A DNA stretch of 64,000 nt, taken from assembly GCA_902790495.1 (NCBI GenBank), contig CADASK010000024.1, positions 5,625-69,624 of the forward strand, given 5' to 3'. Below the pieces are notes generated by a model. That model saw nothing but the letters and a program-made list of their open reading frames with translations. It had not been told where the DNA came from and did no database searches. This document shows, one piece after another, positions 228-39,161 of this stretch. Numbering within the stretch: position 1 is the first letter of the stretch; every line of letters starts with the position of its first letter. The translations under genes were made by a program, and so were the position numbers. This DNA comes from an uncultured Eubacteriales bacterium (lineage in GTDB: Bacteria > Bacillota > Clostridia > Christensenellales > Aristaeellaceae).

Positions 228-285
228 CGAAGGGGTGCAGGGGGCGATCGCAAAGCCCCCTGCCCGCGCCCGCAGGCGCGGAACC
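228..285 (+). repeat. Family-1 bipartite hairpin repeat, short form (copy C1)
   Basis: cgaaggggt GCAGGGGG cgatcgcaaag CCCCCTGC CCGCGCC cgca GGCGCGG aacc: two adjacent perfect hairpins (H1, H2). Intergenic. Confidence 0.9.
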
Positions 286-352
286 TGATGCAGTTGAACT
301 ACGGAAGCTCATGAGCTACCGCTACATAGACAAATCAAGGAGGTCAATCGCT

Positions 353-1408
353 ATGGGAATCTTTGACGTGCTGCGCAGCCAGGCCATCGACGTGATCGAA
401 TGGTCCGACAGCAGCTCCAACACCATCGTGCACAAGTACGACATGAACGGCAAGGAGATCATGATGGGCGCGCAGCTCACCGTGCGCGAGAGTCAGGTGG
501 CGATCTTCGTCAACGAGGGTCAGCTCGCCGACATCTTCCAGCCCGGCCGCTACGAGCTGCAGACCTCCAACATGCCGATCATGACCGCGCTGAAGGCCTG
601 GAAGTTCGGCTTCAACAGCCCCTTCAAGGCGGACGTGTACTTCATCAACACCCGCCAGTTCCTCGACCTGAAGTGGGGCACGGCCAACCCCGTGATGATG
701 CGGGACGCCGAGTTCGGCATGATCCGCCTGCGCGCCTTCGGCAACTACGCCTTCCGCGTGGTGGACCCCGAGACCCTGCTGCGCGAGTGCTTCGGCACCG
801 CCAAGACCTACACCGTGGAGGACATCGAGGGCCAGATCAAGCGCACCGTGGTCTCCAATCTCTCCGACGCCATCGCCGAGAGCAAGATCCCCGCGCTGGA
901 CATCGCCGCCAACTACGACGAGCTGGCCGGCTACGTGCTGCAGGCCGTGAACCCCAAGGTCGCGGGCCTGGGCGTGCAGCTGACCGCCTTCACCATTGAG
1001 AACGTGTCCCTGCCCGAGGAGGTCGAGAAGGCGATGGATCGCCGCACCTCCATGGGCGTGGTCGGCGACCTGAACAAGTACACCCAGTACCAGGCGGCCG
1101 AGGCCCTGCGCGAGAGCGCCAACAACCCCTCCGGCATGGCCGGCGCGGGTGTCGGCGTGGGCGCGGGCGTGGCCATGGGCCAGGCCTTCGCCAGCGCGAT
1201 GCAGGCCAACCAGGCGCCCGCCGCCCAGGCTGCCCCCGCGGCCGCTGCCGGCAGCTTCTGCCCCGCCTGCGGCAAGCCCGTGCCCGCCGGCGCGAGGTTC
1301 TGCCCCAACTGCGGCCAGAAGCAGAGCGCCGATCCCGTGTGCCCCGCCTGCGGCGAGCCCGTGCCCGCCGGCGCGAAGTTCTGCCCGAATTGCGGGAAGA
1401 AGATGTAA
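353..1408 (+). CDS. SPFH/band-7 domain protein with two C-terminal zinc-ribbon motifs (YdjI-like)
   Basis: ATG 353 lies 9 nt after AAGGAGG. The long ORF beginning MGIFDVLRSQAIDVIEWSD... resembles SPFH-domain proteins. The C-terminus carries two copies of CPACGxPVPAGAxFCPNCGxK. Confidence 0.75.
   Translation: MGIFDVLRSQAIDVIEWSDSSSNTIVHKYDMNGKEIMMGAQLTVRESQVAIFVNEGQLADIFQPGRYELQTSNMPIMTALKAWKFGFNSPFKADVYFINTRQFLDLKWGTANPVMMRDAEFGMIRLRAFGNYAFRVVDPETLLRECFGTAKTYTVEDIEGQIKRTVVSNLSDAIAESKIPALDIAANYDELAGYVLQAVNPKVAGLGVQLTAFTIENVSLPEEVEKAMDRRTSMGVVGDLNKYTQYQAAEALRESANNPSGMAGAGVGVGAGVAMGQAFASAMQANQAPAAQAAPAAAAGSFCPACGKPVPAGARFCPNCGQKQSADPVCPACGEPVPAGAKFCPNCGKKM
1256..1402 (+). repeat. In-frame tandem duplication (period 81 nt) encoding the two zinc ribbons
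   Basis: ttctgccccgcctgcggcaagcccgtgcccgccggcgcgaggttctgcccc... at 1256 recurs as gtgtgccccgcctgcggcgagcccgtgcccgccggcgcgaagttctgcccg... at 1337. Confidence 0.85.
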
Positions 1409-1429
1409 TCCTGTCCCGATGAAAGCCTT

Positions 1430-1459
1430 GCCCGGAGTCCTTGCGGCTCCGGGCTTTTT
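1430..1459 (+). terminator. Rho-independent terminator after the SPFH gene
   Basis: GCCCGGAG tccttgcgg CTCCGGGC followed by TTTTT. Confidence 0.8.
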
Positions 1460-1504
1460 CTGTCGAAAGCGACGCGCCCCTTCCATATTCATGTCTTTTT
1501 TGTG

Positions 1505-1533
1505 TTGACAATCGACCAGAAATACAGTATACT
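1505..1533 (+). promoter_or_regulatory. Sigma-70-type promoter of the ABC transporter operon
   Basis: TTGACA (1505-1510), 17-nt spacer, TATACT (1528-1533). Confidence 0.6.
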
Positions 1534-1589
1534 TTCAACAGAACAAGAGCAGCGAAATGCTCGGACAATACAGAAAGGGGATCCGTACC

Positions 1590-2621
1590 ATGAAGAAGTT
1601 TTTGGCTGTCGTTCTGGCCCTGACCATGCTGCTGGGCCTGTGCTCCTTTGCCGTCGCCGAGGACGACGTGCTGGTGATCTACTCCGCCCGCAATGAGCGG
1701 CTGAACAACATCGTCATCCCCGCCTTTGAGGCCGCCACCGGCATCAAGGTCGAGATGATCACCGGCTCCTCCGGCGAGGTGCTGCAGCGCGTGAAGAGCG
1801 AGGTCGAGACCGGCAACGTGACCGTGGACATCCACTGGGCCGCCGACGAGACCATGCTGGCCGCCAACCGCGACCTGTTCGAGGTCTATGTCTCCACCGA
1901 GAACGACGCCCTCTATCCGAAGTTCCAGAATGACGGCACCAACGTGTTCAACAACGCCTATGCCGAGCCCAACGTCATGATCGTCAACACCGACGTGCTG
2001 AAGGAGCTGGGCATCGAGGTCAACGGCTACGCCGATCTGCTCCAGCCCCAGCTGAAGGGCAAGATCATCTCCGCCGACCCCGCCAACTCCTCCTCCGCCT
2101 TCCAGTGCCTGATCGGCATGCTCTACGGCATGGGCAACGGTGACCCGATGAGCAAGGAAGCCTGGGACTTCATCGACGAGTTCCTGAAGATCAAGGGCGA
2201 CATCGCCGCCAACTCCTCCTCCCAGGTGTACAACGGCGTGGCCAACGGCGAGTATGCGGTGGGTCTGAGCTATGAGGATCCCTGCGTGGAGCTGCAGGCC
2301 CAGGGCGACAAGCCCGTGAAGGTCGTCTACGCGGTGGAAGGCACCGTGTACCCCGGCGAGTCCGTGCAGATCATCAAGGGCGCGCCCCACATGGAAGCCG
2401 CGAAGAAGTTCGTGGACTTCGTGCTGAGCGAGGAGAGTCAGACCGCCGTGGCCGCGGCCCTGAACCTGCGCCCCCTGCGCCAGGGCATCCCGGTCAACGA
2501 GAAGATGCTGCCCGACAGCGAGATCAAGCAGTTTGAGACCTACTCCACCAAGTTCGTGGCGGAGCACAAGGCCGAGATCGTGAAGATGTATCTCGACCAT
2601 GTGGAAATGAATATGGAATAA
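1590..2621 (+). CDS. ABC transporter substrate-binding protein, Fe(3+)-type (FbpA/AfuA-like)
   Basis: MKKFLAVVLALTMLLGLCSFA signal peptide. VIYSARNERL..AATGIKVEMITGSSGEVLQRVKSE resembles family-1 iron-type solute-binding proteins. RBS aaagggga upstream of ATG 1590. Confidence 0.75.
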   Translation: MKKFLAVVLALTMLLGLCSFAVAEDDVLVIYSARNERLNNIVIPAFEAATGIKVEMITGSSGEVLQRVKSEVETGNVTVDIHWAADETMLAANRDLFEVYVSTENDALYPKFQNDGTNVFNNAYAEPNVMIVNTDVLKELGIEVNGYADLLQPQLKGKIISADPANSSSAFQCLIGMLYGMGNGDPMSKEAWDFIDEFLKIKGDIAANSSSQVYNGVANGEYAVGLSYEDPCVELQAQGDKPVKVVYAVEGTVYPGESVQIIKGAPHMEAAKKFVDFVLSEESQTAVAAALNLRPLRQGIPVNEKMLPDSEIKQFETYSTKFVAEHKAEIVKMYLDHVEMNME

Positions 2622-2671: not shown

Positions 2672-2730
2672 GGATTCCGCGCCTGCGGGCGCGGGCCGGG
2701 GGCTTTGCGATCGCCCCCGGCACCCCTTCG
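2672..2730 (-). repeat. Family-1 repeat, short form (C2), intercistronic
   Basis: The reverse complement reads cgaaggggt GCCGGGGG cgatcgcaaag CCCCCGGC CCGCGCC cgca GGCGCGG aatcc. Lies between the SBP and ATPase genes of one operon. Confidence 0.9.
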
Positions 2731-2838: not shown

Positions 2839-3918
2839 ATGGGTGTCGCCATTCATGTGGACAACGTGACCAAAGCCTACGGCAAAAACATCGTCATCCA
2901 GGGTCTCTCCGCCGAGATCAAGCCCGGCGAATTCTTCACCCTGCTGGGCCCCTCCGGCTGCGGCAAAACCACCCTGCTGCGCATGATCATCGGCTTCAAC
3001 TCCATCGAGGGCGGCGAGATCCGCGTGGACGACAAGGTGATCAACAACATCCCCACCAACAAGCGCAACATGGGCATGGTGTTCCAGAACTACGCCGTGT
3101 TCCCCCACATGTCCGTGCGCGACAACGTCGCCTACGGACTCAAGACCCGCCGGGTGCCCCGGGAGGAGCGCTACCGCCGGGCCGATGAGATCCTCAAGCT
3201 GGTGAAAATCGACCAGTACGCCGACCGCATGCCGACCCAGCTCTCCGGCGGCCAGCAGCAGCGCGTCGCCCTGGCCCGCGCCATCGTCATCGAGCCCGAG
3301 GTGCTGCTGATGGACGAGCCGCTGAGCAACCTGGACGCCAAGCTGCGCGTGGAGATGCGCAACGTCATCAAGCAGATCCAGCACCAGATCGGCATCACCA
3401 CGGTCTACGTGACCCACGACCAGGAGGAGGCCCTGGCCATCTCCGACCGCATCGCCGTGATGCACGGCGGCGTGATCCAGCAGATCGGCACGCCGAAGTA
3501 CATCTACCAGCGCCCGGCCAACGAGTTCGTCTCCACCTTCATCGGCCTGAGCAACCTGCTGGACGCCACCTGCAGCAATGACACCCTGGACTTCGGCTGC
3601 GGCTACCGCGTGCCCATGACCACCCTGCGCCCCGGCGTGAACGGCCCCGTGCACGTGGCGGTGCGCCCGGAGGAGTTCACCATCCACCAGGATGGCGCGC
3701 CGGGCATCCCCGCCACGGTGCAGAGCAGTGTGTTCCTGGGCATGACCCAGCACTACTTCATGCGCCTGGAGGGCGGCAAGGAGATCGAGGTGGTGGAGAA
3801 CAGCGACCTGACCGACATCCTGCCAGACGGCGCGAAGGTGACCCTGCAGATCGTGCCCCACAAGGTGAACGTGTTTGACGCCGCCAGCCGCACCACCCTG
3901 ATCCGGGAGGAGGCCTGA
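2839..3918 (+). CDS. ABC transporter ATP-binding protein (FbpC/PotA-like)
   Basis: Walker A GPSGCGKTT, signature LSGGQQQRVALARA, Walker B LLMDEPLS. RBS aaggaga upstream. Confidence 0.9.
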   Translation: MGVAIHVDNVTKAYGKNIVIQGLSAEIKPGEFFTLLGPSGCGKTTLLRMIIGFNSIEGGEIRVDDKVINNIPTNKRNMGMVFQNYAVFPHMSVRDNVAYGLKTRRVPREERYRRADEILKLVKIDQYADRMPTQLSGGQQQRVALARAIVIEPEVLLMDEPLSNLDAKLRVEMRNVIKQIQHQIGITTVYVTHDQEEALAISDRIAVMHGGVIQQIGTPKYIYQRPANEFVSTFIGLSNLLDATCSNDTLDFGCGYRVPMTTLRPGVNGPVHVAVRPEEFTIHQDGAPGIPATVQSSVFLGMTQHYFMRLEGGKEIEVVENSDLTDILPDGAKVTLQIVPHKVNVFDAASRTTLIREEA

Positions 3919-3923: not shown

Positions 3924-5579
3924 ATGACAAAACGCCGCTATTCCCCGATCTGGACCTTCCTGGCCCTGGCCATCCTGGCGCTGTTCATCATCTTCGTGGT
4001 GTACCCGCTGGCCCTGGTGCTCTACAAGAGCGTGGTGGACCCCACCACCAACGGCTTCACCCTGGAGAACTTCACCCGCTTCTTCACCCGCAAGTATTAC
4101 ACCAACACCCTGAAGAACTCCTTCAGCGTGACCATCGTGTCCACTCTCATCAGCGCGACGCTGGGCCTGGTGATCGCCTACATCACCCGGCAGTACCGCA
4201 TCGCGGGCAGCAAGTGGCTGAACATCGCCATCGTGGTCAGCTACCTGTCGCCGCCCTTCATCGGCGCCTACGCCTGGATCCAGCTGCTGGGCCGCAACGG
4301 CATCTTCACCCGCTTCATCAACGGGGTCTTCGGCGCGAACTTCGGCGGCATCTACGGCTTCGCGGGCATCGTGCTGGTGTTCTCCCTGCAGTCCTTCCCG
4401 CTGGTGTACATGTACGTCAGCGGCGCGCTGCAGAACCTGGACAACTCCCTGAATGAGGCCGCCGAGAGCCTGGGCGCGAACAACTTCCAACGCGTCACCG
4501 GCATCATCCTGCCGCTGGTGCTGCCCACGGTGCTGGCCTCGGGCCTGCTGGTGTTCATGCGCGTGTTCAGCGACTTCGGCACGCCCATGCTCATCGGCGA
4601 GGGCTACCGCACCTTCCCCGTGGTGCTGTACAACCAGTTCATGGGCGAGGTGACCAACGACAGCTACTTTGCCGCGGCCCTGTGCGTCATCATCATGGCC
4701 ATCACGCTGGTGTTCTTCTTCCTGCAGCGGTGGATTGCCGCGCGCCACAGCTACGCCATGTCGGCCCTGAAGCCCATGCAGCCCCGCGCCCAGCGCCCGC
4801 TGCCGAAGGCTCTGTGCCATATCTTCGTCTACCTCGTGGTGCTCATCGCCCTCCTGCCGCAGATCACGGTCATTGTGACCTCCTTCCTGAAGGAGTCCAC
4901 GCCGGGCATCTTCACCACCGAGCTGTCCCTCATCAACTATGAGACCATCTTCTCCAAGAACCCGCGCGTGATCCCGAACACCTACCTCTTCGGCCTGGCG
5001 GCCATTGCCCTGGTGGTCATCTTCGGCGTGCTGATCTCCTACCTGGCGGTGCGGCGCAAATCCGTCATCACCACCACGGTGGATACCTTGACCATGCTGC
5101 CCTACATCATCCCGGGCTCCGTGCTGGGCATCTGCTTCCTGTACGCCTTCGCCACCAAGCCCCTGGCGCTGACGGGCACCGCGGCCATCATCATCATCGC
5201 GCTGACCGTGCGCCGCATGCCCTACACGATCCGCTCCTCCACCGCCATCATCAGCCAGATCAGCCCCTCCATCGAGGAGGCCGCGGTCTCCCTGGGCGCG
5301 TCCGAGGTGCGCTCCTTCGGCGAGATCATGCTGCCGATGATGATGCCCGGCGTCATCTCCGGCGCCATCATGAGCTGGGTGACGGTGATCAGCGAGCTGT
5401 CCAGCTCCATCATGCTCTACCGCGCATCGACCCAGACCCTGACCGTCGCGGTCTACACAGAGGTCATCCGCGACTGCTTCGGCAACGCCGCGGCCTATTC
5501 CACGGTGCTGACCGTGACGAGCATTGTGTCGCTGCTGCTGTTCTTTAAGCTCACGGGCAGAAGGGATATCAGTGTCTGA
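3924..5579 (+). CDS. ABC transporter permease, duplicated two-domain type (FbpB-like)
   Basis: 551-aa highly hydrophobic protein with two permease halves. Starts 5 nt after the ATPase stop. Confidence 0.85.
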   Translation: MTKRRYSPIWTFLALAILALFIIFVVYPLALVLYKSVVDPTTNGFTLENFTRFFTRKYYTNTLKNSFSVTIVSTLISATLGLVIAYITRQYRIAGSKWLNIAIVVSYLSPPFIGAYAWIQLLGRNGIFTRFINGVFGANFGGIYGFAGIVLVFSLQSFPLVYMYVSGALQNLDNSLNEAAESLGANNFQRVTGIILPLVLPTVLASGLLVFMRVFSDFGTPMLIGEGYRTFPVVLYNQFMGEVTNDSYFAAALCVIIMAITLVFFFLQRWIAARHSYAMSALKPMQPRAQRPLPKALCHIFVYLVVLIALLPQITVIVTSFLKESTPGIFTTELSLINYETIFSKNPRVIPNTYLFGLAAIALVVIFGVLISYLAVRRKSVITTTVDTLTMLPYIIPGSVLGICFLYAFATKPLALTGTAAIIIIALTVRRMPYTIRSSTAIISQISPSIEEAAVSLGASEVRSFGEIMLPMMMPGVISGAIMSWVTVISELSSSIMLYRASTQTLTVAVYTEVIRDCFGNAAAYSTVLTVTSIVSLLLFFKLTGRRDISV

Positions 5580-5629
5580 GTAACTTTTTTCTAACCAGCC
5601 CTATCCTCATGTTCAACGTAAGGGCGATG

Positions 5630-5755
5630 CGAAGGGGTCCCGGGGGCTCGGAGCGCCCGGAAAACGCCATGTTATGGCGTTTTCAGCGGAGAGCGGGCGG
5701 CAGCCCCGGACCGACCGCAAAGCCCCCGGGTCGCGGCCCGCAGGCCGCGAAATCC
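5630..5755 (+). repeat. Family-1 repeat, long form (C3)
   Basis: cgaaggggt CCCGGGGG [ctcggagcgcccgGAAAACGCCATgttATGGCGTTTTCagcggagagcgggcggcagccccggaccga] ccgcaaag CCCCCGGG TCGCGGCC cgca GGCCGCGA aatcc. Confidence 0.9.
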
Positions 5756-5776
5756 TCTTGCTGACATAAAAAGAGA

Positions 5777-5819
5777 CCACAGGTTCCTTACCTTTACAAG
5801 GTAAAGCCTGTGGCCTTTT
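5777..5819. terminator. Bidirectional terminator between the ABC operon and clpB
   Basis: CCACAGG ttcc TTACCTT tac AAGGTAA ag CCTGTGG nested hairpin, flanked by an A-run upstream and a T-run downstream. Confidence 0.7.
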
Positions 5820-5834
5820 CCATATGTAAGCGGA

Positions 5835-5892
5835 GTTTCCGCGCCTGCGGGCGCGGGTCAGGGGCTTTGCGGTCGCCCCTGACAACCCTTCG
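5835..5892 (-). repeat. Family-1 repeat, short form (C4)
   Basis: The reverse complement reads cgaagggtt GTCAGGGG cgaccgcaaag CCCCTGAC CCGCGCC cgca GGCGCGG aaac. Confidence 0.9.
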
Positions 5893-5933
5893 CGTCGCCT
5901 CCTGGTGATCAACGATAAAGTTGATCATGGAAG

Positions 5934-8531
5934 TTACACTGTGACAAACTGTCCATCCCTGACATCGACGGTGATCTCCTCCCCGGGCTTCACCGCGCCG
6001 GCGACGATCTTCCTCGCCACCAAGGTCTCCACGCGGCTCTGCAGGAAGCGCTTGAGCGGGCGCGCGCCGTAGACCGGGTCGAAGCCCTGGTCGATGACCT
6101 GCCGCATGGCCTCGTCGGTCAGCGTCACGTGCAGGCGGCTGTCCTTCAGGCGGTCGTTCAGGCTGTTCACCATCAGGCCCACGATGCGGGTGATCTCCTC
6201 GCGGCCCAGGGGCTTGTAGCAGATGATCTCGTCAATCCGGTTCAGGAACTCGGGGCGGAAGTGGGTCTTCAGCAGGCGGTCCACGATGCCGCGGGCCTCC
6301 TCGGAGATCTCGCCGTCGCGGATGCCCTCGAGGATCGCGTCGCTGCCCAGGTTGCTGGTCATGATGAGGATCGTGTTCTTGAAGTCCACGGTGCGGCCCT
6401 GGCTGTCGGTGATGCGGCCGTCGTCCAGCACCTGCAGCAGCACGTTGAACACATCCGGGTGCGCCTTCTCCACCTCGTCGAACAGCACGACGCTGTAGGG
6501 CTTGCGGCGCACGGCCTCGGTCAGCTGGCCGCCCTCGTCGTAGCCGACGTATCCGGGAGGCGCTCCGATGAGACGGGACACGGAGAACTTCTCCATGTAT
6601 TCCGACATATCGATGCGGATCAGGTTCTTCTCGTCGTCGAACAGGGCCTGGGCCAGAGCCTTGGCGAGCTCGGTCTTGCCGACGCCGGTCGGGCCGAGGA
6701 ACAGGAAGCTGCCCAGCGGGCGGTTCGGGTCCTGGATGCCCGCGCGGCTGCGCAGGATGGCCTCGCTGACCTTGGTCACGGCCTCGTCCTGGCCGATGAC
6801 GCGCTGGTGCAGGATGTCCGGCAGGTGCAGCAGCTTCTCGCGCTCGCCCTCCATGAGCTTGGCGACCGGGATGCCGGTCCAGCGGGCGACGATGCGGGCA
6901 ATCTCCTCGTCGGTCACGCGGTCGTGCAGCAGGCTGTCCTCGCCGCGGGCCTTTTCGGCCTCCGCCTCGGCCTCCTCCAGCTGCTTCTTCAGGGTGGGCA
7001 GGCGGCCGTACTTCAGCTCGGCGGCCTTGTTGAGGTCGTAGGCGCGCTCCGCCTTCTCAATCTCACCGTTCAGCTGCTCCAGCTGCTCGCGCAGGCTCGT
7101 GACCTTCTCGATCACGGCCTTCTCGCCCTCCCACTTGGCCTGCATGGCGTTGAAGCTGTCGCGCTCCTCCGCCAGCTGCTTCTGCACCTCCTCCAGGTGC
7201 GCCTTGGAGAGCTCGTCGTCGTCCTTCTTCAGGGCGGCCTCCTCGATCTCCAGCTGCATCATGCGGCGGCGTACCTCATCCATCTCGGTGGGCATGGAGT
7301 CGATCTCCGTGCGGATCATGGCGCAGGCCTCGTCCACCAGGTCGATGGCCTTGTCCGGCAGGAAGCGGTCGGTGATATAGCGGTTGGAGAGGGTCGCGGC
7401 GGAGATCAGGGCGCTGTCCTGAATCTTCACGCCGTGGAAGACCTCGTAGCGCTCCTTCAGGCCGCGCAGGATGGCGATGGTGTCCTCCACGGAGGGCTCG
7501 CCGACCATCACGGGCTGGAAGCGGCGCTCGAGGGCGGCGTCCTTCTCAATGTACTGGCGGTATTCGTTCAGCGTGGTCGCGCCGATGCAGTGCAGCTCGC
7601 CGCGGGCCAGCATGGGCTTGAGCAGGTTGCCGGCGTCCATGGCGCCCTCCGCCTTGCCCGCGCCGACGATGGTGTGCAGCTCGTCGATGAACAGCAGGAT
7701 GCGGCCCTCGCTCTTCTTAATCTCGGCCAGCACGGCCTTCAAGCGCTCCTCAAACTCGCCGCGGAACTTCGCGCCGGCGATCAGGCTGCCCATGTCCAGG
7801 GAGAACACGGACTTGTCCTTCAGGCTGTCCGGCACGTCGCCGCGCACGATGCGCTGGGCCAGGCCCTCGGCGATGGCGGTCTTGCCGACGCCGGGCTCGC
7901 CGATGAGCACCGGGTTGTTCTTGGTCTTGCGGCTGAGGATGCGGATCACGTTGCGGATCTCCGCGTCACGGCCGATGACCGGGTCGAGCTTCTGCTGCCG
8001 CGCCATCTCCACCAGGTCGGTGCCGTATTTCTTCAGCGAATCGTAGGTCTCCTCGGGGCTGTCGGAAGTCACGCGGGTCGCGCCGCGCACCTCGCTGAGG
8101 GCCTTGAGGAAGCGATTGAGGTCGAAGCCCGCGCGGCTGAGCACGGTCTTCATGCGCTCGTTGGGCTTCGAGGCCAGGCCCATCCACAGATGCTCCACGG
8201 AGATGTACTCGTCCTTCATCTGCTTGGCGCGGGCGTCGGCCTCGTTCAGGGCCTTGTCCAGCTCCTGGGTGATGTAGACCTTGTCGGCCTCCCGCCCGGG
8301 GCCGGAGACCCGCGGCATGCGCTCCAGGGCATCCTGCACGGCGGCCTTCAGGCTGTCCGCGCTGACCCCGCACTTGCCCAGCAGCTGCGGGATCAGCCCG
8401 CCCGCGTCCTCCAGCAGGGCCGAGGCCAGGTGCTCCTGATCCACCTGCATGTGCTGATAATCCACAGCGATGCGCTGCGCGCGCTGGATCGCCTCCAGCG
8501 ACTTCTGCGTATATTGGTTCATGGCTGCCAT
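5934..8531 (-). CDS. clpB: ATP-dependent chaperone ClpB
   Basis: 865 aa. Two AAA+ modules (GEPGVGKT and GPTGVGKT Walker A), a coiled-coil middle domain and a Clp N-domain. RBS aaggag 9 nt upstream of the ATG. Confidence 0.95.
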
Positions 8532-8791: not shown

Positions 8792-11572
8792 ATGAACGAC
8801 GTGCAGCAGCGCGCAGCGGCAAAGCACTTTGCGGATTACTGGAAAGGCAAGGGCTATGAGAAGGGCGACAGTCAAAAGTTCTGGCTTTCCCTGCTGACGG
8901 ATGTGTTCGGCGTGGAACACGCGGCGGAATTCATATCGTTTGAAGATCAAGTTCATCTTGACCACACCAGTTTTATAGATGGATATATCCCTGCCACCCA
9001 TGTTCTGATTGAGCAGAAAAGCATAGGCAAGAGCCTGTCACAGCCCATCCGGCAATCTGACGGTTCCCTGTTGAAGCCGATAGAGCAGGCAAAACGCTAT
9101 GCTAACGAACTGCCTTATTCACAACGTCCGCGCTGGATTGTCATTTCTAATTTTGAGTGTTTCCACGTTTACGATATGGAACACCCGCAGGCAGAAGCCA
9201 TAGAAATCAAGCTTGAAGACTTGCCTGAAGAGTATTACCGGCTTGAATTCCTGGTGAAGACCGGGGATGCGAACCTGCAAAGGGAAATGCAAATATCCTT
9301 TGACGCAGGCAAACTTGTCGGCAAACTGTATGACGCTTTCTTGAAGGAATACAGAGACCCCACCAACGAACACAGCTTGAAAAGCCTGAATGCGCTGTGC
9401 GTCCGCCTTGTTTTCTGCCTGTATGCCGAGGATGCGGGTATATTCGGCCGGCGTTTAATGTTCCATGACTATTTGCAGCACAACGGCATTTCCAAGGCAC
9501 GTCAGGCGTTAATCGACCTGTTCCGCGTGCTGGACACAAAAATCGAAGACCGCGACCCGTATATGGACGACGAGCTTGCATCGTTCCCTTACGTCAACGG
9601 CGGGCTTTTCAGCGATGAAAACATCGAGATACCTCGCATCAATGAAACCATTTTCGATCTGCTGCTGAACCAAGCCAGCGCGGCGTTTAACTGGAGCGAG
9701 ATCAGCCCGACCATATTTGGCGCTGTGTTTGAAAGCACCTTGAACCCGGAAACCCGGCGCAGCGGCGGCATGCACTATACCAGCATTGAAAACATTCACA
9801 AGGTCATTGACCCCTTATTCCTCGACGCATTGAAAACAGAGCTGGAAGACATCAAAGCAATCCAGCAGCCTGGCACAAGAAAGCGTCGTTTGGAAGCATA
9901 TCAGAACAAACTTGCTTCGCTGAAATTTTTGGACCCGGCCGCAGGCAGCGGAAATTTCCTCACCGAGAGCTATCTTTGTCTGCGCAGGCTGGAAAATGAA
10001 GTGATCGACTTGCTGCAGCAGGGGCAGATTGTCATCGGTGAGGCGATCAATCCGATCAAAGTATCCATTGCGCAGTTTTACGGCATTGAAATCAATGACT
10101 TTGCCGTGACCGTTGCTAAAACCGCTTTGTGGATTGCTGAAAGCCAAATGTTGAAGCGGACAGAAGATATAGTGCATTTGCAGCTTGATTTTCTGCCCTT
10201 GAAAAGCTATGTAAACATCGTTGAAGGAAACGCCCTGCGCATTGACTGGAATGATGTTATCCCGGCGCGGGAACTGTCCTATATTATGGGCAATCCGCCG
10301 TTTGTAGGCGCACGGATAATGACAAAAGTGCAAAAGGAAGATATTAATCTTATATTTGCTAAACGGAAAGGCGCAGGAAATCTTGATTATGTGTCGGCAT
10401 GGTATGAAAAAGCTACTGATTATATTTCTGGAACAAGAATCAATGCAGCCTTTGTGTCAACTAATTCCATTACTCAAGGGGAACAGGCAACCATATTATG
10501 GCAGCCTTTAATGGCAAAAGGTGTAGTTATTACTTTTGCATGGACAACTTTTAAGTGGGGCAGTGAATCAAATGACCCAGCCGCAGTTAGCTGTGTTATT
10601 GTTGGTTTTTCCGTAAATCCCCCAACTTCTGAACGTTTACTTTTTCAAAGCGAGCATTCATTTATCAAAGCAAACAACATAAATGCGTACCTGTTGAATG
10701 CGCCGAATATTTTTGTAACAAACAGAGCTAATACTTTGTGTAATGCCCCTGCAATCAATTATGGTAGTTTCGCTTTAGATGATGGAAACTATACAATAAG
10801 CGAAAAGGAATACTCCGAACTTATTGCACAGGATGAAACGATAACTGAATTGATGCGTCCATTTATTGGCGCACAAGAATTGTTGCACAAAAAGAAACGG
10901 TTTTGTGTTTGGCTAAAAGGTGTATCCCCCTCTAAGCTTAATGCTCATCCACTTATCAAAAACAAAGTGGCATTAGTTCAGGAATGGAGAAGCAAAAGTT
11001 CCCGGCAAAATACAGTAGCTTTAGCTGAGACCCCTACACTATTTGCAGAAGTAAGGCAACCAGATACGATGTATCTTGCAATCCCAACTGTTTGTAGTGA
11101 AAAAAGGCGTTATATACCTATGGCATTTTTGACACCAGATATTATAGCATCAAATCAATTATACATTGTTGGAAATGCTGACATATATCATTTTGGCGTC
11201 CTGATGTCAAATGTTCATATGGCGTGGATGCGTGCTGTATGTGGTAGATTAGAGTTAAGATATAGGTATTCGTCCGCCGTTGTTTATAATAATTTTCCAT
11301 GGCCTAATCCTACAGCCCAACAGCAAGAACGAATAAGAAAAACTGCACAGGCTATCATTGATGCACGTGCGCTTTATCCTGATAGCAGCCTTGCAGAGTT
11401 ATATGATGAAGTGTTAATGCCCCCGGAGCTGCGCACAGCCCACCAACAGAATGACCGCGCTGTATGGGAAGCATACGGCAAAGCATGGAACATCGGCAAA
11501 GAAAGTGAATGTGTCGCCTACCTGATGAAGCTTTATCAAACTATGACGGCGGCAGAGGGCAGCAAATCGTAA
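8792..11572 (+). CDS. MmeI-family Type IIL restriction-modification enzyme (fused nuclease, N6-adenine methyltransferase and specificity domain)
   Basis: 926 aa. The N-terminus has a PD-ExK-like IDGYIPATHVLIEQKS segment within an MmeI-like leader (FWLSLLTDVFGV). SAM motif I FLDPAAGSGNFL, motif IV NPPF (MGNPPFVGA), and a long C-terminal TRD. RBS ggagg 7 nt upstream. Confidence 0.85.
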   Translation: MNDVQQRAAAKHFADYWKGKGYEKGDSQKFWLSLLTDVFGVEHAAEFISFEDQVHLDHTSFIDGYIPATHVLIEQKSIGKSLSQPIRQSDGSLLKPIEQAKRYANELPYSQRPRWIVISNFECFHVYDMEHPQAEAIEIKLEDLPEEYYRLEFLVKTGDANLQREMQISFDAGKLVGKLYDAFLKEYRDPTNEHSLKSLNALCVRLVFCLYAEDAGIFGRRLMFHDYLQHNGISKARQALIDLFRVLDTKIEDRDPYMDDELASFPYVNGGLFSDENIEIPRINETIFDLLLNQASAAFNWSEISPTIFGAVFESTLNPETRRSGGMHYTSIENIHKVIDPLFLDALKTELEDIKAIQQPGTRKRRLEAYQNKLASLKFLDPAAGSGNFLTESYLCLRRLENEVIDLLQQGQIVIGEAINPIKVSIAQFYGIEINDFAVTVAKTALWIAESQMLKRTEDIVHLQLDFLPLKSYVNIVEGNALRIDWNDVIPARELSYIMGNPPFVGARIMTKVQKEDINLIFAKRKGAGNLDYVSAWYEKATDYISGTRINAAFVSTNSITQGEQATILWQPLMAKGVVITFAWTTFKWGSESNDPAAVSCVIVGFSVNPPTSERLLFQSEHSFIKANNINAYLLNAPNIFVTNRANTLCNAPAINYGSFALDDGNYTISEKEYSELIAQDETITELMRPFIGAQELLHKKKRFCVWLKGVSPSKLNAHPLIKNKVALVQEWRSKSSRQNTVALAETPTLFAEVRQPDTMYLAIPTVCSEKRRYIPMAFLTPDIIASNQLYIVGNADIYHFGVLMSNVHMAWMRAVCGRLELRYRYSSAVVYNNFPWPNPTAQQQERIRKTAQAIIDARALYPDSSLAELYDEVLMPPELRTAHQQNDRAVWEAYGKAWNIGKESECVAYLMKLYQTMTAAEGSKS

Positions 11573-11967: not shown

Positions 11968-12025
11968 CGAAGGTTTGCAAAGGGCGATCGCAAAGCCCTT
12001 TGCCCGCGCCCGCAGGCGCGGAACC
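11968..12025 (+). repeat. Family-1 repeat, short form (C5)
   Basis: cgaaggttt GCAAAGGG cgatcgcaaag CCCTTTGC CCGCGCC cgca GGCGCGG aacc. Confidence 0.9.
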
Positions 12026-12035: not shown

Positions 12036-12093
12036 GGATTTCGCCGCCTGCGGGCGGCGACCAGAGGCTTTCCGATCGCCTCTGGACTCTTCG
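12036..12093 (-). repeat. Family-1 repeat, short form, CCAGAGG subtype (C6)
   Basis: The reverse complement reads cgaagagt CCAGAGG cgatcggaaag CCTCTGG TCGCCGCC cgca GGCGGCGA aatcc. Tail-to-tail with C5. Confidence 0.9.
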
Positions 12094-12146
12094 GGGCAGC
12101 CGTTTGGTGAAAGGGCTTTGTGTCGCTCAAGGCAATTGTAAGGAAG

Positions 12147-19366: not shown

Positions 19367-19426
19367 CGAAGGTTTCCAAAGGGCGATCGGAAAGCCCTTT
19401 GGTCGCCGCCCGCAGGCGGCGAAATC
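19367..19426 (+). repeat. Family-1 repeat, short form (C8)
   Basis: cgaaggttt CCAAAGGG cgatcggaaag CCCTTTGG TCGCCGCC cgca GGCGGCGA aatc. Confidence 0.9.
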
Positions 19427-19465: not shown

Positions 19466-19591
19466 CGAAGGGGTCCCGGGGGTTCGGAGCGCCCGGAAAA
19501 CGCCATGTTATGGCGTTTTCAGCGGAGAACGGGCGGCAGCCCTGGACCGATCGCAAAGCCCCCGGGTCGCCGCCCGCAGGCGGCGAAATCC
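19466..19591 (+). repeat. Family-1 repeat, long form (C9)
   Basis: cgaaggggt CCCGGGGG [ttcggagcgcccgGAAAACGCCATgttATGGCGTTTTCagcggagaacgggcggcagccctggaccga] tcgcaaag CCCCCGGG TCGCCGCC cgca GGCGGCGA aatcc. Confidence 0.9.
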
Positions 19592-20880: not shown

Positions 20881-20977
20881 CGAAGGGTTGGAGGGGGCTC
20901 GGAGCGCCCGGAAAACGCCATGTTATGGCGTTTTCAGCGGAGAGCGGGCGGCAGCCCCGGACCGACCGCAAAGCCCC
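20881..20977 (+). repeat. Family-1 repeat, long form, 3'-truncated (C10)
   Basis: cgaagggtt GGAGGGGG [insert] ccgcaaag cccc, after which the H1 3' arm and H2 are missing. Confidence 0.85.
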
Positions 20978-20987: not shown

Positions 20988-21047
20988 CGAAGGTTTCCAA
21001 AGGGCGATCGCAAAGCCCTTTGGTCGCCGCCCGCAGGCGGCGAAATC
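20988..21047 (+). repeat. Family-1 repeat, short form (C11)
   Basis: cgaaggttt CCAAAGGG cgatcgcaaag CCCTTTGG TCGCCGCC cgca GGCGGCGA aatc. Lies 10 nt after truncated C10. Confidence 0.9.
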
Positions 21048-34554: not shown

Positions 34555-34601
34555 GCCTGTCCGGGCATGGGATTTCCCGGACAGGCGCCTCTTTGTTGTT
34601 T
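34555..34601 (+). terminator. Terminator after the LysR gene
   Basis: GCCTGTCCGGG catgggattt CCCGGACAGGC followed by a T-rich tract. Confidence 0.7.
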
Positions 34602-35955
34602 ACGCCGTCCTCTCCTCCCCCGTCAGCCCGTCCACCTCCTCGGGCTGGAGGTAGGGGTTCAGGCGCAGGGCGGTGGCGCGGTCGATGTCAGGGCGCATCA
34701 CCTGGATGTTGCGGATGATCTCGCTCTCGTCGGCGATGGTCTGGCGGGTGAAGCGCACGGCCTCGGTGTCCGCGTCCAGCAGGGCGAGGATGCCTCGCAC
34801 GAAAGCGTAGGCCTGCCACTCGAAGCGGTTGGCCTTCAGGTCGAGGCTGGCACAGGCGGCGCGGATGGCCACGTTGGTCAGGCTGCCGCCGGTCAGCTCC
34901 TCCATGTTCAGGGCCATGTAGTCCTGGTAGAGGGCCTTCTCCAGCAGCTTCAGCGCGGCCTGCCGGGCCTCGTAGGGCACACTGATCGTGTGGGGCTCGG
35001 CGGTGGACGCGCCGCCCGCGCCGTCGGAGATGCTGGTCACGGCCTTCAGCCGCTGGATGGTCTCCAGCACCTCGGCGATGTCGTCGAGGGTGCCGCCGAA
35101 GTTGTTGAGCACCCAGTAGACGTCGTTGGCGCGGTCGAGGTTGTCCGCGAAGTCCGAGAGGATGCGGTCGTAGCAGTCGATCTTGGAGCGGATGGCCGGG
35201 GTCAGCTCGCTGCGGCGCTCCTCGTTGGCCCAGAAGGGCACCAGCGGCAGGGCCCGCACCGCCTCGGCCACCAGCTCCGTGCCCAGCACGCTCTCGCGGC
35301 GGATGAGCCGGTAGGGGCGGAAATCCCCTGCGGGCACCAGCTGACCCTTCTCCTCCCGCCACATCGAGACGCCCTGGGGCTCGAACAGCCGCACGCACAG
35401 CGGCGAGCGGGCCTCCAGCTGCCAGAACTGCACACCCATCCGGGCCTCGCCGCTCACCTCGTCGATCAGCGGAAAGAAGCCGGAACAGGGGTCGCGCACC
35501 GCCTCCACGATCTCCAGGTGGTCGGTGTTCCAGTAGCCCCAGCACACGCCGTGCTGCAGGGCTTTTTCGCCCATGCGGGCAAGGGTGAGGTCGAAGTCCG
35601 CGCCGAGGCGCGCCTTGAGGCCCGGGTCGCCAAGGGTGACGCCGTTGCCCAGCAGGTACTGGGCCTGCTGGGTCACGAAGCGGCCGAAGAAGCCCGAGTA
35701 CACGCGGCTGCCGACCACGTCCTTCATCCGCGTGCGCACGCGGCGGCGGCCCGAGGCGTCTGTGGTCTCCACCTTGGAGGCGCGCAGCACGGTCTTCTGG
35801 GCGATGGCCGGGTTCTCCCCGCGGAAGTACGCACTGGCCTGCAGTCCGTCGCGGAAGAACGGCGACACCCGGTACGCGCGGATCGCCTGAAGCAGGCATT
35901 TGCCCTTGTCTGGGGAGGAAAGATAGGTTTGGTAGGTGATGGGGGTATGGTACAT
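34600..35955 (-). CDS. Phage portal protein (SPP1 Gp6-like)
   Basis: 451 aa, located directly downstream of terL. FFGRFVTQQAQYLLGNGVTL resembles the conserved N-terminal portal segment. Confidence 0.65.
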   Translation of the reverse strand: MYHTPITYQTYLSSPDKGKCLLQAIRAYRVSPFFRDGLQASAYFRGENPAIAQKTVLRASKVETTDASGRRRVRTRMKDVVGSRVYSGFFGRFVTQQAQYLLGNGVTLGDPGLKARLGADFDLTLARMGEKALQHGVCWGYWNTDHLEIVEAVRDPCSGFFPLIDEVSGEARMGVQFWQLEARSPLCVRLFEPQGVSMWREEKGQLVPAGDFRPYRLIRRESVLGTELVAEAVRALPLVPFWANEERRSELTPAIRSKIDCYDRILSDFADNLDRANDVYWVLNNFGGTLDDIAEVLETIQRLKAVTSISDGAGGASTAEPHTISVPYEARQAALKLLEKALYQDYMALNMEELTGGSLTNVAIRAACASLDLKANRFEWQAYAFVRGILALLDADTEAVRFTRQTIADESEIIRNIQVMRPDIDRATALRLNPYLQPEEVDGLTGEERTA

Positions 35956-35968
35956 AGGATACTCCTTT

Positions 35969-37222
35969 TCAAATTTTCGGTTCGATTCGCAGCGCCCTCA
36001 CCAGCGACGCGGCGCTGTCCGGCGCGTCATCATGCTCCGCCTGGGGCGTGTAGCCCAAAATCTCCCGCAGCCACGCGGGATCCGTGCCCGCCACCAGTGT
36101 CACCCGCGGCCACCAGGCCCGCAGATAGGTGCTGATCTTGATGTGCTTGTTCATCCGCTCGGCGTAGGGATGCGCCGCGATCCCCCTGCGCCGGGCCTCC
36201 CGGGCGAGATAGCCCCTGTCGCCGTTGGTCTCCATCCACAGCGGGCCACAGAGCAGCCGCTCGCACACGTCCCCGATCTCCTCCAGGCAGTCGTTCACGT
36301 GGGCGCGCCACAGCCGGCCGTAGAGGTACAGCCGCTCGCCGTCGAAGCGGCCACAAGTCAGGGCGGTGCCCTCGCCGCCGCCGTAGCCCGCGTCCACGTG
36401 GGCGATGCCGTCCCGCAGGCAGTCCGTGTCCTCCGTGAAGGGCGGCATCAGGGCGAACAGGGCGTCCGCCTCGGCGATGTGCCGCAGCTCATAGTTGGCC
36501 GCGAAGAGGCTGGGACTCATGGACGCGCGCAGGGCCCGCAGCTCCTCCGGCGCGATCAGCCCGGTGCTGTAGCAGTCGAAGCGCTGCGGGGCCGGCATCA
36601 GGCTGATGGCGTCCTCCGGGTGCCAGGGCGTGCCCATGTTGATCATCCGCCCACCGCGGTTGCGGATGTTCTGCAGCTCCTGGTACACCGTGCGCGTCCG
36701 CTGGCGCTCGGCGCTGCTGAGCCGGTCGGTCAGGTTCACGATGTCGTCGGTCAGGATGAGGTCGGCGTGTTTGCCGGTGAGACTGCCGCCGATGCCCTGG
36801 CCGCGCAGCTGGGGCGCGCCGCGGGCCGCCGTGTACACGCTGGTGACGAGGGTGTCCTCCGTGGCGCGGGCGAGGGTCACCGGCTCGCCCCAGACCCGCG
36901 CCGTCAGCTCCCGCAGGGCGGGATGCCGGAGGATCGCGGCGGTCTGGGCAATGACCTCGCGCACATCCGTGTCGGTCTTCCGCAGGAAGAGCAGGGTTTT
37001 CTCCGGCTGCAGGGCCAGGGTCAGCGCCATGGCCAGAGAGAGGCAGGTGGTCTTGTAGCTGCCGCGGTGGGCCAGCAGCGTCATGTCGGTTTCGCCGAGG
37101 AGCATTTGGCGAAGCCAGTCACCGTGGAGGGCATCGGTCAGGCGGGTGAAGCCGCAGAGGCGGCCGACGGCGGCGGGGTGGGCGGCGAGGAAGGTAATGG
37201 CATCACGATTTCTTTGCTGCAT
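35969..37222 (-). CDS. Phage terminase large subunit
   Basis: Walker-A-like LAHRGSYKTTCLS. Length and position upstream of portal fit. ATG 37222 follows aaggaa. The longer ORF extension runs through repeat C12. Confidence 0.7.
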   Translation of the reverse strand: MQQRNRDAITFLAAHPAAVGRLCGFTRLTDALHGDWLRQMLLGETDMTLLAHRGSYKTTCLSLAMALTLALQPEKTLLFLRKTDTDVREVIAQTAAILRHPALRELTARVWGEPVTLARATEDTLVTSVYTAARGAPQLRGQGIGGSLTGKHADLILTDDIVNLTDRLSSAERQRTRTVYQELQNIRNRGGRMINMGTPWHPEDAISLMPAPQRFDCYSTGLIAPEELRALRASMSPSLFAANYELRHIAEADALFALMPPFTEDTDCLRDGIAHVDAGYGGGEGTALTCGRFDGERLYLYGRLWRAHVNDCLEEIGDVCERLLCGPLWMETNGDRGYLAREARRRGIAAHPYAERMNKHIKISTYLRAWWPRVTLVAGTDPAWLREILGYTPQAEHDDAPDSAASLVRALRIEPKI

Positions 37223-37232
37223 CAATTCCTTC

Positions 37233-37646
37233 TTATGTGTTTCTTTCAGCTTGGACAGCTGGAGATTCCGCGCCTGCGGGCGCGGGCAAAGGGCTTTGCG
37301 ATCGGTCCGGGGCTGGTCGCCCGCTCTCCGCTGAAAACTCCATAACATGGAGTTTTCCGGGCGCTCCGAGCCCCCTCCACCCCTTCGCCCCTTCGCCTGA
37401 GTGAGCTTCTTCCGCAATCTCAGCAAGAAGCTGGGTGATCTCGCGGGAGAGGCGGCGGGTGTCGGGCGGAGCGGCTTCGGGGCGCTCGAAGAGGCCGTAG
37501 TGGCGGCCCAGCAGCTCGGCGGCCTTGTAGCGCTCGCTGGTCTTCACGGCGGCGTCCTCCGGCTGCTCGCCGCGCAGGATGGACGTCATCACCCGCAGCA
37601 CCTCCTCCGGCTGGGCGATGGCCGGGTCGCTCGTGCGTCTGGTCAT
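37233..37646 (-). CDS. Terminase small subunit-like protein (C-terminal half only; tail encoded by a repeat)
   Basis: VKTSERYKAAELLGRHYGLF matches the conserved Terminase_2-type motif, but the N-terminal HTH is absent. The last ~50 codons are read through family-1 copy C12. ATGA overlap with the upstream gene. Confidence 0.5.
   Translation of the reverse strand: MTRRTSDPAIAQPEEVLRVMTSILRGEQPEDAAVKTSERYKAAELLGRHYGLFERPEAAPPDTRRLSREITQLLAEIAEEAHSGEGAKGWRGLGAPGKLHVMEFSAESGRPAPDRSQSPLPAPAGAESPAVQAERNT
37264..37387 (-). repeat. Family-1 repeat, long form, chimeric (C12)
   Basis: The reverse complement reads cgaaggggt GGAGGGGG [..GAAAACTCCATgttATGGAGTTTTC..] tcgcaaag CCCTTTGC CCGCGCC cgca GGCGCGG aatc. 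The H1 arms do not match each other. The inner hairpin carries a compensatory G-C to T-A change. Confidence 0.9.
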
Positions 37647-38059
37647 GCGGCCGCCTCCAACCTGCGGGTGAATTCCGCGCGGATGCGCTGCACATGCCGC
37701 GGCGACAGCCGGGTTGTCTCGGCGATGGCCTCGCAGGTTTCCCCGTAGGCGTAGTAGTCCTCGAGAATGGCCCGGTTGCGGCTGTTCGGCGCCAGGCGCA
37801 GGATCTGCCTCAGCCGGGGACGGATGGCCGCCAGGCGCTGTTCGTTCTCCTCCAGCTGCCTCAGGTAGGCGTCTCGGTGCTGCTCCGCCGCGTAGCGCGG
37901 CTCGTTGGTGCCGGGCAGTTGTCCCGGCGCGCAGGACCCTCGCAGGCCCGCCGGCCCCAGCCGCTCCTCCAGGCTGTCCAGCGTTCTCCTCAGCGCCCGC
38001 GATTCCCGCGCCATCTCCCGGCAAAGGCTCAGGCATTCCAGATCGGTCAGGGTTTCCAT
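37643..38059 (-). CDS. Sigma-70 region-4-type HTH protein (phage late regulator, ArpU/RinA/DUF1492-like)
   Basis: RNRAILEDYYAYGETCEAIAETTRLSPRHVQRIRAEFTRRL is a region-4-like HTH. Lies directly upstream of the packaging genes. Confidence 0.55.
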   Translation of the reverse strand: METLTDLECLSLCREMARESRALRRTLDSLEERLGPAGLRGSCAPGQLPGTNEPRYAAEQHRDAYLRQLEENEQRLAAIRPRLRQILRLAPNSRNRAILEDYYAYGETCEAIAETTRLSPRHVQRIRAEFTRRLEAAA

Positions 38060-38113
38060 GCTTCATTCTCCTCTCTATGCGAATGTTTGTTCGCTCAGTG
38101 CGTCTGCATCATA

Positions 38114-38132: not shown

Positions 38133-38145
38133 TCAAGGGCTCGGC

Positions 38146-39149: not shown

Positions 39150-39161
39150 ACACGTGAAAAA

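Follow-up and report, generated by a model that had tools for sequence, protein, structure and literature searches.

A covarying module of about 65 nt nested in the hairpin tips of REP-like intergenic repeats from uncultured rumen Clostridia

Repetitive extragenic palindromes (REPs) and the transposases that act on folded single strands are the described systems closest to the repeats reported here. For Y1 transposases, which act on one strand, the hairpin has to be imperfect, and both the mismatch within it and a conserved sequence at its foot are required (PMC3333891). REPs and REPINs are tagged by a tetranucleotide, GTAG or CGTC, at the palindrome foot (PMC3333891, PMC3733652), and REPs are themselves insertion targets of insertion sequence (IS) elements, namely IS1397, ISKpn1, ISPpu9 and ISPa11 (PMC1525189). 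The DNA analysed here, called the window in what follows, is a stretch of 64,000 nucleotides from an uncultured Eubacteriales bacterium of the Aristaeellaceae (GenBank assembly GCA_902790495.1, contig CADASK010000024.1, positions 5,625 to 69,624 of the forward strand). It contains a REP-like intergenic repeat of 56–58 nt, family 1, which is formed by two hairpins, H1 and H2. A preliminary description had proposed that some copies carry a structured module within the H1 loop, and this was borne out. The module is a discrete nested unit of gain and loss, with a fixed orientation in its hosts and no target duplication; the family that it forms is widespread and uncatalogued, and covariation defines it well. 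In our opinion, it is best filed as a small, structured, non-autonomous intergenic repeat, unusual in that it nests in the hairpin tips of structured sequences and has a richly constrained, non-palindromic core.

As in REP, BIME and REPIN families, the sequences are high-copy, extragenic, GC-rich imperfect palindromes whose stems vary while pairing is kept, and they show mosaic, clustered arrangements and what appears to be strand-specific recognition. The conserved unpaired or mismatched bases and the conserved sequence at the hairpin foot are also shared with REPs and REPINs, being features that RAYT (TnpA-REP) needs (PMC3333891). Unlike a REP, which is a single hairpin of 20–40 nt, the module measures 63–66 nt and has three helices, and the host genomes are uncultured Clostridia and not Proteobacteria. 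The GTAG or CGTC tag is absent at host and module ends on either strand. As for the inverted doublets of the REPIN/BIME kind, there is one clean inverted pair only (the element starting at 5630 on the plus strand with that ending at 5892 on the minus strand), the rest being single or in same-orientation tandem.

The short form, which is the host without module, reads CGAAGG, H1 5' arm, GAT-CGCAAAG, H1 3' arm, H2 (CGCGCC-CGCA-GGCGCG) and GAA; the long form is the same host with the module nested in it. The H1 arms vary, with at least nine variants, yet they are complementary in all 23 short forms from the window and related loci. In the short form, the loop of H1 holds an intact 8-nt palindrome, GCGATCGC (for instance at window 244–251), which the module interrupts in the long form. 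This octamer is the same as that of the cyanobacterial HIP1 repeat. A degenerate pattern for the inner hairpin of the module matches exactly seven sites in the window, where 100 shuffles gave an expectation of zero. There are seven long forms, together with at least seven short forms, in 64 kb, all intergenic; five of the long forms lie on the plus strand and two on the minus strand. The parts of the focal long form are as follows, module position 1 being window position 5643.

5630–5752, plus strand: focal long form, host (H1 and H2) carrying the module.
5634–5646, plus strand: host H1 5' arm, GGGGTCCCGGGGG, pairing with 5722–5732; the H1 arms covary among short forms.
5647–5711, plus strand: nested module, the unit gained or lost (module positions 5–67 plus AC, ends within 2 nt either way), delimited by short versus long forms, filled versus empty sites and covariance-model matches.
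5647–5654, plus strand: 5' strand of helix Pα, CTCGGAGC, pairing with 5686–5693, with G·A, G·G and A·G as the non-canonical pairs at its centre; covariation at 5-51, 6-50, 7-49, 8-48, 11-45 and 12-44.
5655–5659, plus strand: conserved 5-nt bulge GCCCG, directly 5' of the foot of P3.
5660–5684, plus strand: P3, the 11-bp inner hairpin of the preliminary description, with a 3-nt loop.
5685–5693, plus strand: invariant A43, followed by the 3' strand of Pα, GCGGAGAG.
5695–5706, plus strand: P4 mini-hairpin, GGGC-GGCA-GCCC.
5712–5732, plus strand: remnant of the host loop, CGACCGCAAAG, and H1 3' arm.
5733–5748, plus strand: host H2 hairpin, GCGGCC-CGCA-GGCCGC.

The inner hairpin, P3, had been given as GAAAACGCCAT/ATGGCGTTTTC in five window copies, which is correct, and so is the compensatory G-C to T-A change quoted for the 37264 copy (GAAAACTCCAT/ATGGAGTTTTC). 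The 61514 copy (GAAAACTCCAC/GTGGAGTTTTC), in which the hairpin loop is AGT in place of GTT, does carry the additional T-A to C-G change attributed to it, but two changes to the consensus do not describe it: it is a member of another subtype, B, with different flanks on both sides of the hairpin and no CGGGCG segment. The compensation goes far beyond these two events. When only the outer flanks were fixed (TCGGAGCGCCCG, 23–27 free bases, AGCGGAGARCGGGCG), with the hairpin free to vary and one genome taken per species, the 25 free bases formed a perfect 11-bp hairpin in every match; the 26 distinct sequences were 100% paired, and nine of the 11 pairs were changed on both sides. At least 11 different stem sequences occur (among them GAAAACAGTCC, GAAAACGGTCC, GAGATAGAGCC and GAGAAAGAGCC), and the stem is 98% paired in a wider set of 54 sequences. 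The foot is conserved (GAAA.../...UUUC), while the upper stem varies provided that pairing is kept.

Besides P3, the module has a helix that is absent from the preliminary description. In this helix, Pα, a 5' CGGAG pairs with a 3' CGGAG (module positions 5–12 with 44–51), giving four or five Watson-Crick pairs, a non-canonical centre and then two more Watson-Crick pairs. The Watson-Crick positions are 93–99% paired, with up to four pair types per position. Where both sides of a pair are free of the search anchors, pair 6-50 is UA in 24 cases, GC in 26, AU in four and CG in four with one mismatch, pair 5-51 is UA in 24, CG in 24, GC in seven and AU in one with three mismatches, and pair 8-48 is CG in 29, UA in 14 or G·A in 11. 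In the type A copies of the window, the base at position 5 (C or U) predicts that at position 51 (G or A) without exception, and the centre of the helix consists of G·A, G·G and A·G; in most subtypes it is a tandem G·A (5'-GA/5'-GA). Unanchored copies add compensations at 7-49 (CG, GC, AU), 12-44 (CG, GC), 9-47 and 10-46. The register of Pα is fixed because one unanchored copy replaces the central G·A/A·G pairs by U-A/C-G. Over 54 distinct sequences, paired cells amount to 94.1% versus 71.3% in shuffles, and the covariation score is 0.592 versus 0.168 in shuffles, none of 500 reaching it; the score is at most 0.134 when the partners are slid by 1–3 columns. RNAalifold independently recovers outer Pα and P3. 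The alternative inner register that it offers (12-46, 13-45, 14-44) was rejected, since the G12/C44 variants fit only 12-44.

The bulge between Pα and P3 is GCCCG, or GCCUG in some copies (GCCYG), and faces an invariant A. In 96 distinct copies, anchor-free ones included, four of its five positions are at least 97% conserved and the fourth position is C in 88%. The third helix, P4, lies 3' of Pα and has 4–5 bp, usually GGGC-GGCA-GCCC with a G-N-N-A loop; its variants, such as GGGU-GAUA-ACCC, GGGCC-GGAA-GGCCC and GGAC...GUCC, include a few compensated stem changes. The hairpin is found in 70 of 101 distinct copies and is degenerate in subtype B. The stem CGCCCG/CGGGCG, which had been thought to close a three-way arrangement, did not hold up: it shows no covariation, it is broken in about one third of the unanchored copies and two of its pairs, 15-54 and 16-53, are C·A in 23–24 of 71. 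The segment CGGGC pairs instead with GCCC as P4, and the proposed stem is mutually exclusive with Pα plus P4. 

Other arrangements of the same parts were tried and rejected. A pseudoknot of Pα with the CGCCCG/CGGGCG stem has no linker nucleotides, and the two pairings are alternatives of which only Pα covaries. A kissing contact between the bulge (GCC) and the P4 loop (GGC) disagrees with loops that vary (GAUA, GGAA, GAA) with no matching change in the bulge. Thermodynamic folding was discarded as arbiter, as minimum-free-energy folds favour other pairings by 7–9 kcal/mol and the z-scores are similar on both strands. A kink-turn or k-junction reading of the G·A pairs was rejected too. A kink-turn has a 3-nt bulge immediately before tandem sheared G·A pairs, between one canonical and one non-canonical stem, whereas the bulge found here has 5 nt, lies two pairs away from the G·A and is on the other strand; moreover, the tandem G·A (G9·A47, A10·G46) is flanked on both sides by covarying Watson-Crick pairs (8-48, 11-45, 12-44).

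The module had been described as the long form of family 1, a view that is too narrow, for it is an independent unit that occurs also outside family 1. The scan with the outer flanks gave 39 matches at 35 loci in 12 metagenome-assembled genomes of ruminant-gut Clostridia. A covariance model then found divergent copies with no anchor match, which form subtypes A', B (including the 61514 copy) and C. The metagenome scan for subtypes other than A returned 113 loci, made up of about 68 true copies and about 45 chance matches, the latter being separable by a hairpin stem of at most four pairs. In total, the covariance model yielded 132 matches over the full length, of which 96 are distinct, at about 100 loci and on one strand only, in genomes and metagenomes of ruminant-gut Clostridia. 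Against Rfam 15, the window gave no match at gathering thresholds and the module none in scans at E ≤ 1, ≤ 10 and ≤ 0.1; these scans returned only tRNA and weak tmRNA matches caused by flanking tRNA fragments. No match pointing to a phage or plasmid origin of the module was found in viral contigs, phage records or plasmid records.

In 66 of 120 distinct copies the context contains no family-1 sequence. The window's own genome and the bin CAMNLM01 have the module in family-1 loops; in other bins it lies in the variable loop of tRNA-Ala(CGC) pseudo-copies, in leader-like regions just upstream of start codons, in other repeats and in module tandems. The tRNA-Ala(CGC)-derived pseudo-copies, with the module exactly in the variable loop, are at about 1120–1270 of locus L004, about 3262–3393 and 5034–5165 of L030 and about 2596–2700 of L022. 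In L030 the repeated unit extends from the tRNA D-loop as far as the terminal CCA, and a low-GC AAA_14/DUF4143 gene lies between two of its copies; L004 has an intact tRNA-Ala with no module 150 nt downstream of the pseudo-copy. These pseudo-copies may be repeats derived from a tRNA, or else duplications of the attachment sites of integrated islands. Another context is a conserved locus of about 480 nt (L064 10040–10530; L135 3100–3600; L074 10060–10560, minus strand; L054 at a contig end), which combines three different modules with connecting hairpins (inverted GCAAATCCGCA segments) and ends in an intrinsic terminator on the module strand (10492–10522 of L064). No Rfam family matches this locus, which may represent a larger gene for a non-coding RNA. 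The module is also embedded in other complex tandem or dispersed intergenic repeats of related bins (L012 1–500, minus strand; L035 2600–3700), which are rich in small hairpins with CAGUG, CGGUG or CAAUG loops.

In the window itself, the seven long copies of the preliminary description were all found at the coordinates that it gave; some details have to be amended, as two copies (37264 and 47378) lie on the minus strand and two are truncated, that at 20881 at its 3' end and that at 47378 at its 5' end. The remaining long forms and the short forms are listed here.

19466–19588, plus strand: long form; module at about 19483–19547, type A, U5/A51.
20881–20977, plus strand: long form with neither H1 3' arm nor H2; module at about 20898–20962; abuts the short form at 20988–21045.
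37266–37387, minus strand: long form; module at about 37305–37370; H1 arms non-complementary; 1-nt insertion in the P4 loop.
47378–47484, minus strand: 5'-truncated long form, full-length in two other assemblies of the locus.
55624–55747, plus strand: long form; module at about 55641–55705; H2 with a G·T pair.
61514–61631, plus strand: long form with a subtype B module at about 61531–61593; Pα CGCC-GA-AC / GU-GA-GGCG, with canonical tandem G·A.
228–283, plus strand: short form.
2675–2730, minus strand: short form, antisense to both flanking genes.
5836–5892, minus strand: short form, inverted relative to the focal long form.
11968–12023, plus strand: short form.
19367–19424, plus strand: short form; the 19466 long form follows after 42 nt.
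20988–21045, plus strand: short form, directly after the truncated long form.
59496–59551, minus strand: short form, antisense to both flanking genes.

The non-complementary H1 arms of the 37264 copy, GGGGTGGAGGGGGC and GCCCTTTGCCC, are the same base for base in three assemblies. Mismatched host arms occur in about nine of 29 long forms, versus none of 23 short forms, and therefore the copies recombine through the shared module. The 47378 copy is the product of a strain-level deletion: compared to the full-length copy in L149/L150 (4598–4660), the window is missing 64 nt between two CGGAA repeats (window 47420–47484), a loss that takes in the 5' arm of the host and the first part of the module. 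Upstream of this deletion, AGGCGCGGAACC directly follows a stop codon and resembles the tail of an older family-1 element. A divergent family-1-like element lies at about 12040–12115 on the minus strand, directly downstream of the BipA gene and inverted relative to the short form at 11968–12023, with AGTCCAGAGGC and GCCTCTGGTC as arms and GATCGGAAAG as loop. A metagenome contig (L128, 1–130), 98.9% identical to window 246–1749, loses homology exactly in the H1 loop of the 228–283 element, and beyond the break it has a subtype B module and a different 5' arm, owing either to recombination of dispersed copies or to an assembly chimera. As an orthologous case of short/long interconversion it is unusable, as the homology breaks inside the element.

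Homologous sites with and without the module were found in several places. One leader-like region contains two modules in L015, and the homologous regions of L120 and L003 contain just the first and just the second of them, respectively. The middle module of the L064/L135 locus is missing from L074, where a plain GGG-AGU-CCC hairpin takes its place. Downstream of the permease gene that precedes the 61514 copy of the window, the ortholog in L091 has no module; in the L064 region syntenic to the 61514 copy, the modules are on the other strand, antisense to the permease genes. The unit gained or lost comprises about 63–66 nt, starting directly after GG to GGGGG and ending near ...GCCC(C)GG, with boundaries accurate to 2 nt either way. 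A G-run (positions 2–4) precedes 86–95% of the copies, and it might belong to the element. Neither target duplication nor terminal inverted repeats were found in the filled/empty and short/long comparisons, and there is no inverted repetition between the two module ends, YUCGGAG... and ...GCCCCGG. In hosts of the CGSAAAG type the orientation is identical in all 54 distinct copies. One host-arm subtype may be combined with different module subtypes, as may one module subtype with different host arms.

The reading that we favour, as a tentative one, is that two distinct small repeats make up the long form and that the module is a non-autonomous, structure-dependent mobile element moved by an enzyme acting in trans. 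The fold together with the conserved unpaired bases would be the recognition site of a strand-specific and structure-specific enzyme, which would move the module as a folded single-stranded nucleic acid, most likely single-stranded DNA by way of a nuclease of the HUH/Y1 type, like those that act on REPs and on the ends of IS200/IS605 elements, with G-rich hairpin tips as probable preferred targets. Once inserted, the copies would decay neutrally and recombine among themselves, and the chimeric host arms would arise because inserted copies recombine with each other. Those copies located in untranslated regions would be co-transcribed and may have local effects as RNA. The strand-specificity of the fold is strong: full-model scores are 45–78 bits on one strand and about 20 bits on the other, where only the palindromic P3 is matched; therefore, something reads one strand. 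As to the carrier at the propagation step, we lean towards single-stranded DNA.

Mechanistically, the closest precedents are the Y1 HUH nucleases of IS200/IS605 elements and of REPs and the IS elements that land in REP hairpins. The module shares with IS200/IS605 elements the absence of terminal inverted repeats and of target duplication, seamless presence or absence, subterminal imperfect hairpins and what may be orientation-specific insertion next to a short specific sequence. It differs from them in that its target is only a G-run and that no tnpA or tnpB is nearby. By analogy, GCCCG at the foot of P3 could act as a guide sequence of the IS200/IS605 kind, being complementary to CGGGC 10 nt 3' of P3; this complement is missing in subtype B. 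The IS elements that insert into REPs (PMC1525189) likewise use a REP-like hairpin as landing site and give nested repeats, but they are full-length elements with their own transposase, whereas the guest here is a non-coding element of 65 nt. Extra stem-loops at the tips of helices that leave the host fold intact are known as intervening sequences of 23S rRNA, which occur in rRNA only, are removed by RNase III and form no dispersed family with a conserved core. The module resembles them in adding stem-loops to the tips of existing hairpins without disrupting the fold. Several known classes were rejected: a classical miniature inverted-repeat transposable element, as the module ends are not inverted repeats and there is no target-site duplication; integron attC sites, as there are no R''/R' core sites (RYYYAAC / GTTRRRY) and copies lie on both strands beside housekeeping genes; an intrinsic terminator, as none was called in 5500–6000 and the elements end in GAA(A/C)C with no T-run; and CRISPR, from the sequence.

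Several observations weigh against a mobile module. No transposase, RAYT or other mobilising gene was found in the 64-kb window, and a tblastn search with an approximate TnpA(IS200) query gave no match in about 1 Mb of genome-fragment sequence. Clustering of all open reading frames within 1.5 kb of modules, which might have pointed to a linked gene, gave only repeat-derived pseudo-open reading frames and common transporters. The two subterminal hairpins are unrelated, P3 having 11 bp and a GAAAAC foot and P4 having 4–5 bp of GGGC/GCCC, whereas the left and right ends of IS200/IS605 elements are alike. Modules are mostly sense to flanking genes, in seven of seven cases in the window, on both strands, and in 21 cases against six in the type A genome set. 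Two series of changes suggest selection in place: one compensated change (7-49) separates the orthologous copies of L064 and L135, and P4 passes from GGGC/GCCC through GGGC/GUCC to GGAC/GUCC in three contigs with similar flanks. The presence of window copies on both strands (five plus, two minus) is a poor fit to a simple lagging-strand rule. At any single site, moreover, a precise deletion may have taken place instead of an insertion.

Some of these observations are also what would be expected if the module were a cis-acting structured RNA that benefits its host, for instance by binding protein or blocking exonucleases in untranslated regions, and that was spread by recombination or duplication and kept by purifying selection. 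We regard this explanation as possible, with a clearly lower probability than the mobile module. Covariation in three helices, tandem G·A of the sheared type and a capped mini-hairpin are typical of functional RNAs; the bias towards the sense orientation just described extends to the family-1 elements, 13 of 15 in the window being sense to the adjacent upstream gene; the terminator of the L064 multi-module locus is on the module strand; and the insertions respect the structure of their hosts, be it the variable loop of a tRNA or the tip of a hairpin. The compensated L064/L135 change points the same way. Other observations speak against an RNA function. The preliminary description had seen a hint of plus-strand RNA function in a G-T pair in H2 of the 55624 copy, a pair that is indeed present, but among 1,725 paired cells from 96 distinct copies G·U is not in excess of A·C (23 versus 19), so the hint is not sustained. 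On the mobile reading, G·U and A·C are similar because neutral decay of single copies would give that, selection acting on propagation. Over all loci, 26 cases are sense and 19 antisense with respect to co-directional flanking genes, which is not significant (p = 0.37), and the L064 modules are antisense to permease genes. The P4 loops, mostly GGCA, GGUA or GAUA, are hence not GNRA; a density of about one copy per 9 kb next to unrelated genes and presence or absence at homologous sites speak against an essential local role; and no Rfam family matches.

A bolder proposal, which we consider doubtful, is that the module represents a new class of mobile structured element, a self-folding cassette of about 65 nt that integrates at G-rich hairpin tips, with the G·A helix and the bulge providing a portable protein-binding or RNA-level function, and with L064-type loci as real non-coding RNA genes built from the module. 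Such a cassette, by integrating at G-rich hairpin tips, could colonise REP-like repeats, the tRNA variable loop and multi-helix loci without breaking their folds.

A mobile module might also travel as RNA, either as a retro-element resembling short interspersed nuclear elements or by insertion akin to reverse splicing, with a reverse transcriptase supplied in trans. What recommends this is the repeated unit of the RUG111 genome, which extends from the D-loop of tRNA-Ala to CCA with the module in the variable loop, is present in at least three copies and ends exactly at CCA; in addition, the insertion sites are single-stranded or loop-like in RNA, and the element is strictly strand-specific. 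Yet no reverse transcriptase was seen near any module copy, there are no A-tails or truncation gradients, and G·U is not favoured. The tRNA fragments are explained equally well as attachment-site duplications, given the low-GC AAA_14 gene between two copies. We think that an RNA intermediate is unlikely.

Equally improbable in our view is that the long form is the ancestral family-1 element, the short forms being internal deletions of it, so that the module never moves alone. ERIC-like families do have deleted forms. The long and short versions of ERIC/IRU and of the pneumococcal BOX element also differ by a discrete internal block, and, as with the repeats studied here, they are transcribed within mRNAs and predicted to form stable RNA structures. 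They have no sequence relationship to the present repeats, in which the inner block is independent elsewhere and the covariation is much stronger. The fixed host orientation (54 to 0) and the 64-nt deletion between short direct repeats inside a window element would suit an ancestral long form, but more than half of the distinct copies lie outside family 1, one host-arm subtype may carry different module subtypes and vice versa, the module alone is gained or lost in contexts other than family 1, and the short-form loop is the intact GCGATCGC palindrome with no deletion scar. That the whole family is an artefact of chance similarity or of repeat mis-assembly in metagenome bins can be dismissed, for, although numerous metagenome copies lie at contig ends and the synteny of L128 is lost exactly inside the element, no chance matches are expected in the window, those among the metagenome loci are cleanly separable by their stems of at most four pairs, and the 37264 copy reads identically in three independent assemblies, which also agree closely elsewhere.

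The window comes from the chromosome of an uncultured Clostridia bacterium of the rumen, with 64% G+C overall and about 93% at third codon positions, and the locus is also present in two independent public assemblies, a MEGAHIT contig and a STEW19 scaffold, with 99.7–100% identity. Its genes are of housekeeping type, including those for ClpB, BipA, RF3, RNase E/G and numerous sugar ABC transporters, and those adjoining the modules are unrelated housekeeping genes. Between the convergent elements starting at 5630 on the plus strand and ending at 5892 on the minus strand, at about 5768–5822, there is a long hairpin, GACCACAGG...CCTGTGGCC, with an A-run before and a T-run after it; by eye it resembles a bidirectional terminator, and a simple scan made no call there. 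A complete restriction-modification enzyme of the MmeI type, with all five MmeI Pfam domains, is encoded at 8792–11572 in an island of 45% G+C within the 64% genome. A second low-GC stretch, at 16–18 kb, contains open reading frames that have no Pfam match. Positions 34600–39150 are a prophage remnant, with a portal gene of the SPP1 type (34600–35955, minus strand), a probable terminase gene upstream, small unknown genes and a pair encoding an ImmA peptidase and a helix-turn-helix protein; the 37264 long form is located between two remnant genes. This copy is annotated inside a spurious open reading frame of 137 aa in one public assembly and of 558 aa in another.

Whichever explanation applies, the repeat accounts for numerous contig breaks and chimeric junctions in rumen metagenome assemblies, and a covariance model is ready for annotating repeats that are now called as spurious open reading frames, such as the 137-aa 'gene' over the 37264 copy. 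If the module acts as RNA, it would be an uncatalogued and widespread motif, a tandem G·A helix with a conserved bulge, in poorly studied and agriculturally important bacteria. If it is mobile, it would be a compact, sequence-defined non-coding element that targets the tips of other hairpins and whose recognition features have been mapped by natural covariation. Therefore, the search for its mobiliser in uncultured rumen Clostridia would be testable by phylogenetic profiling.

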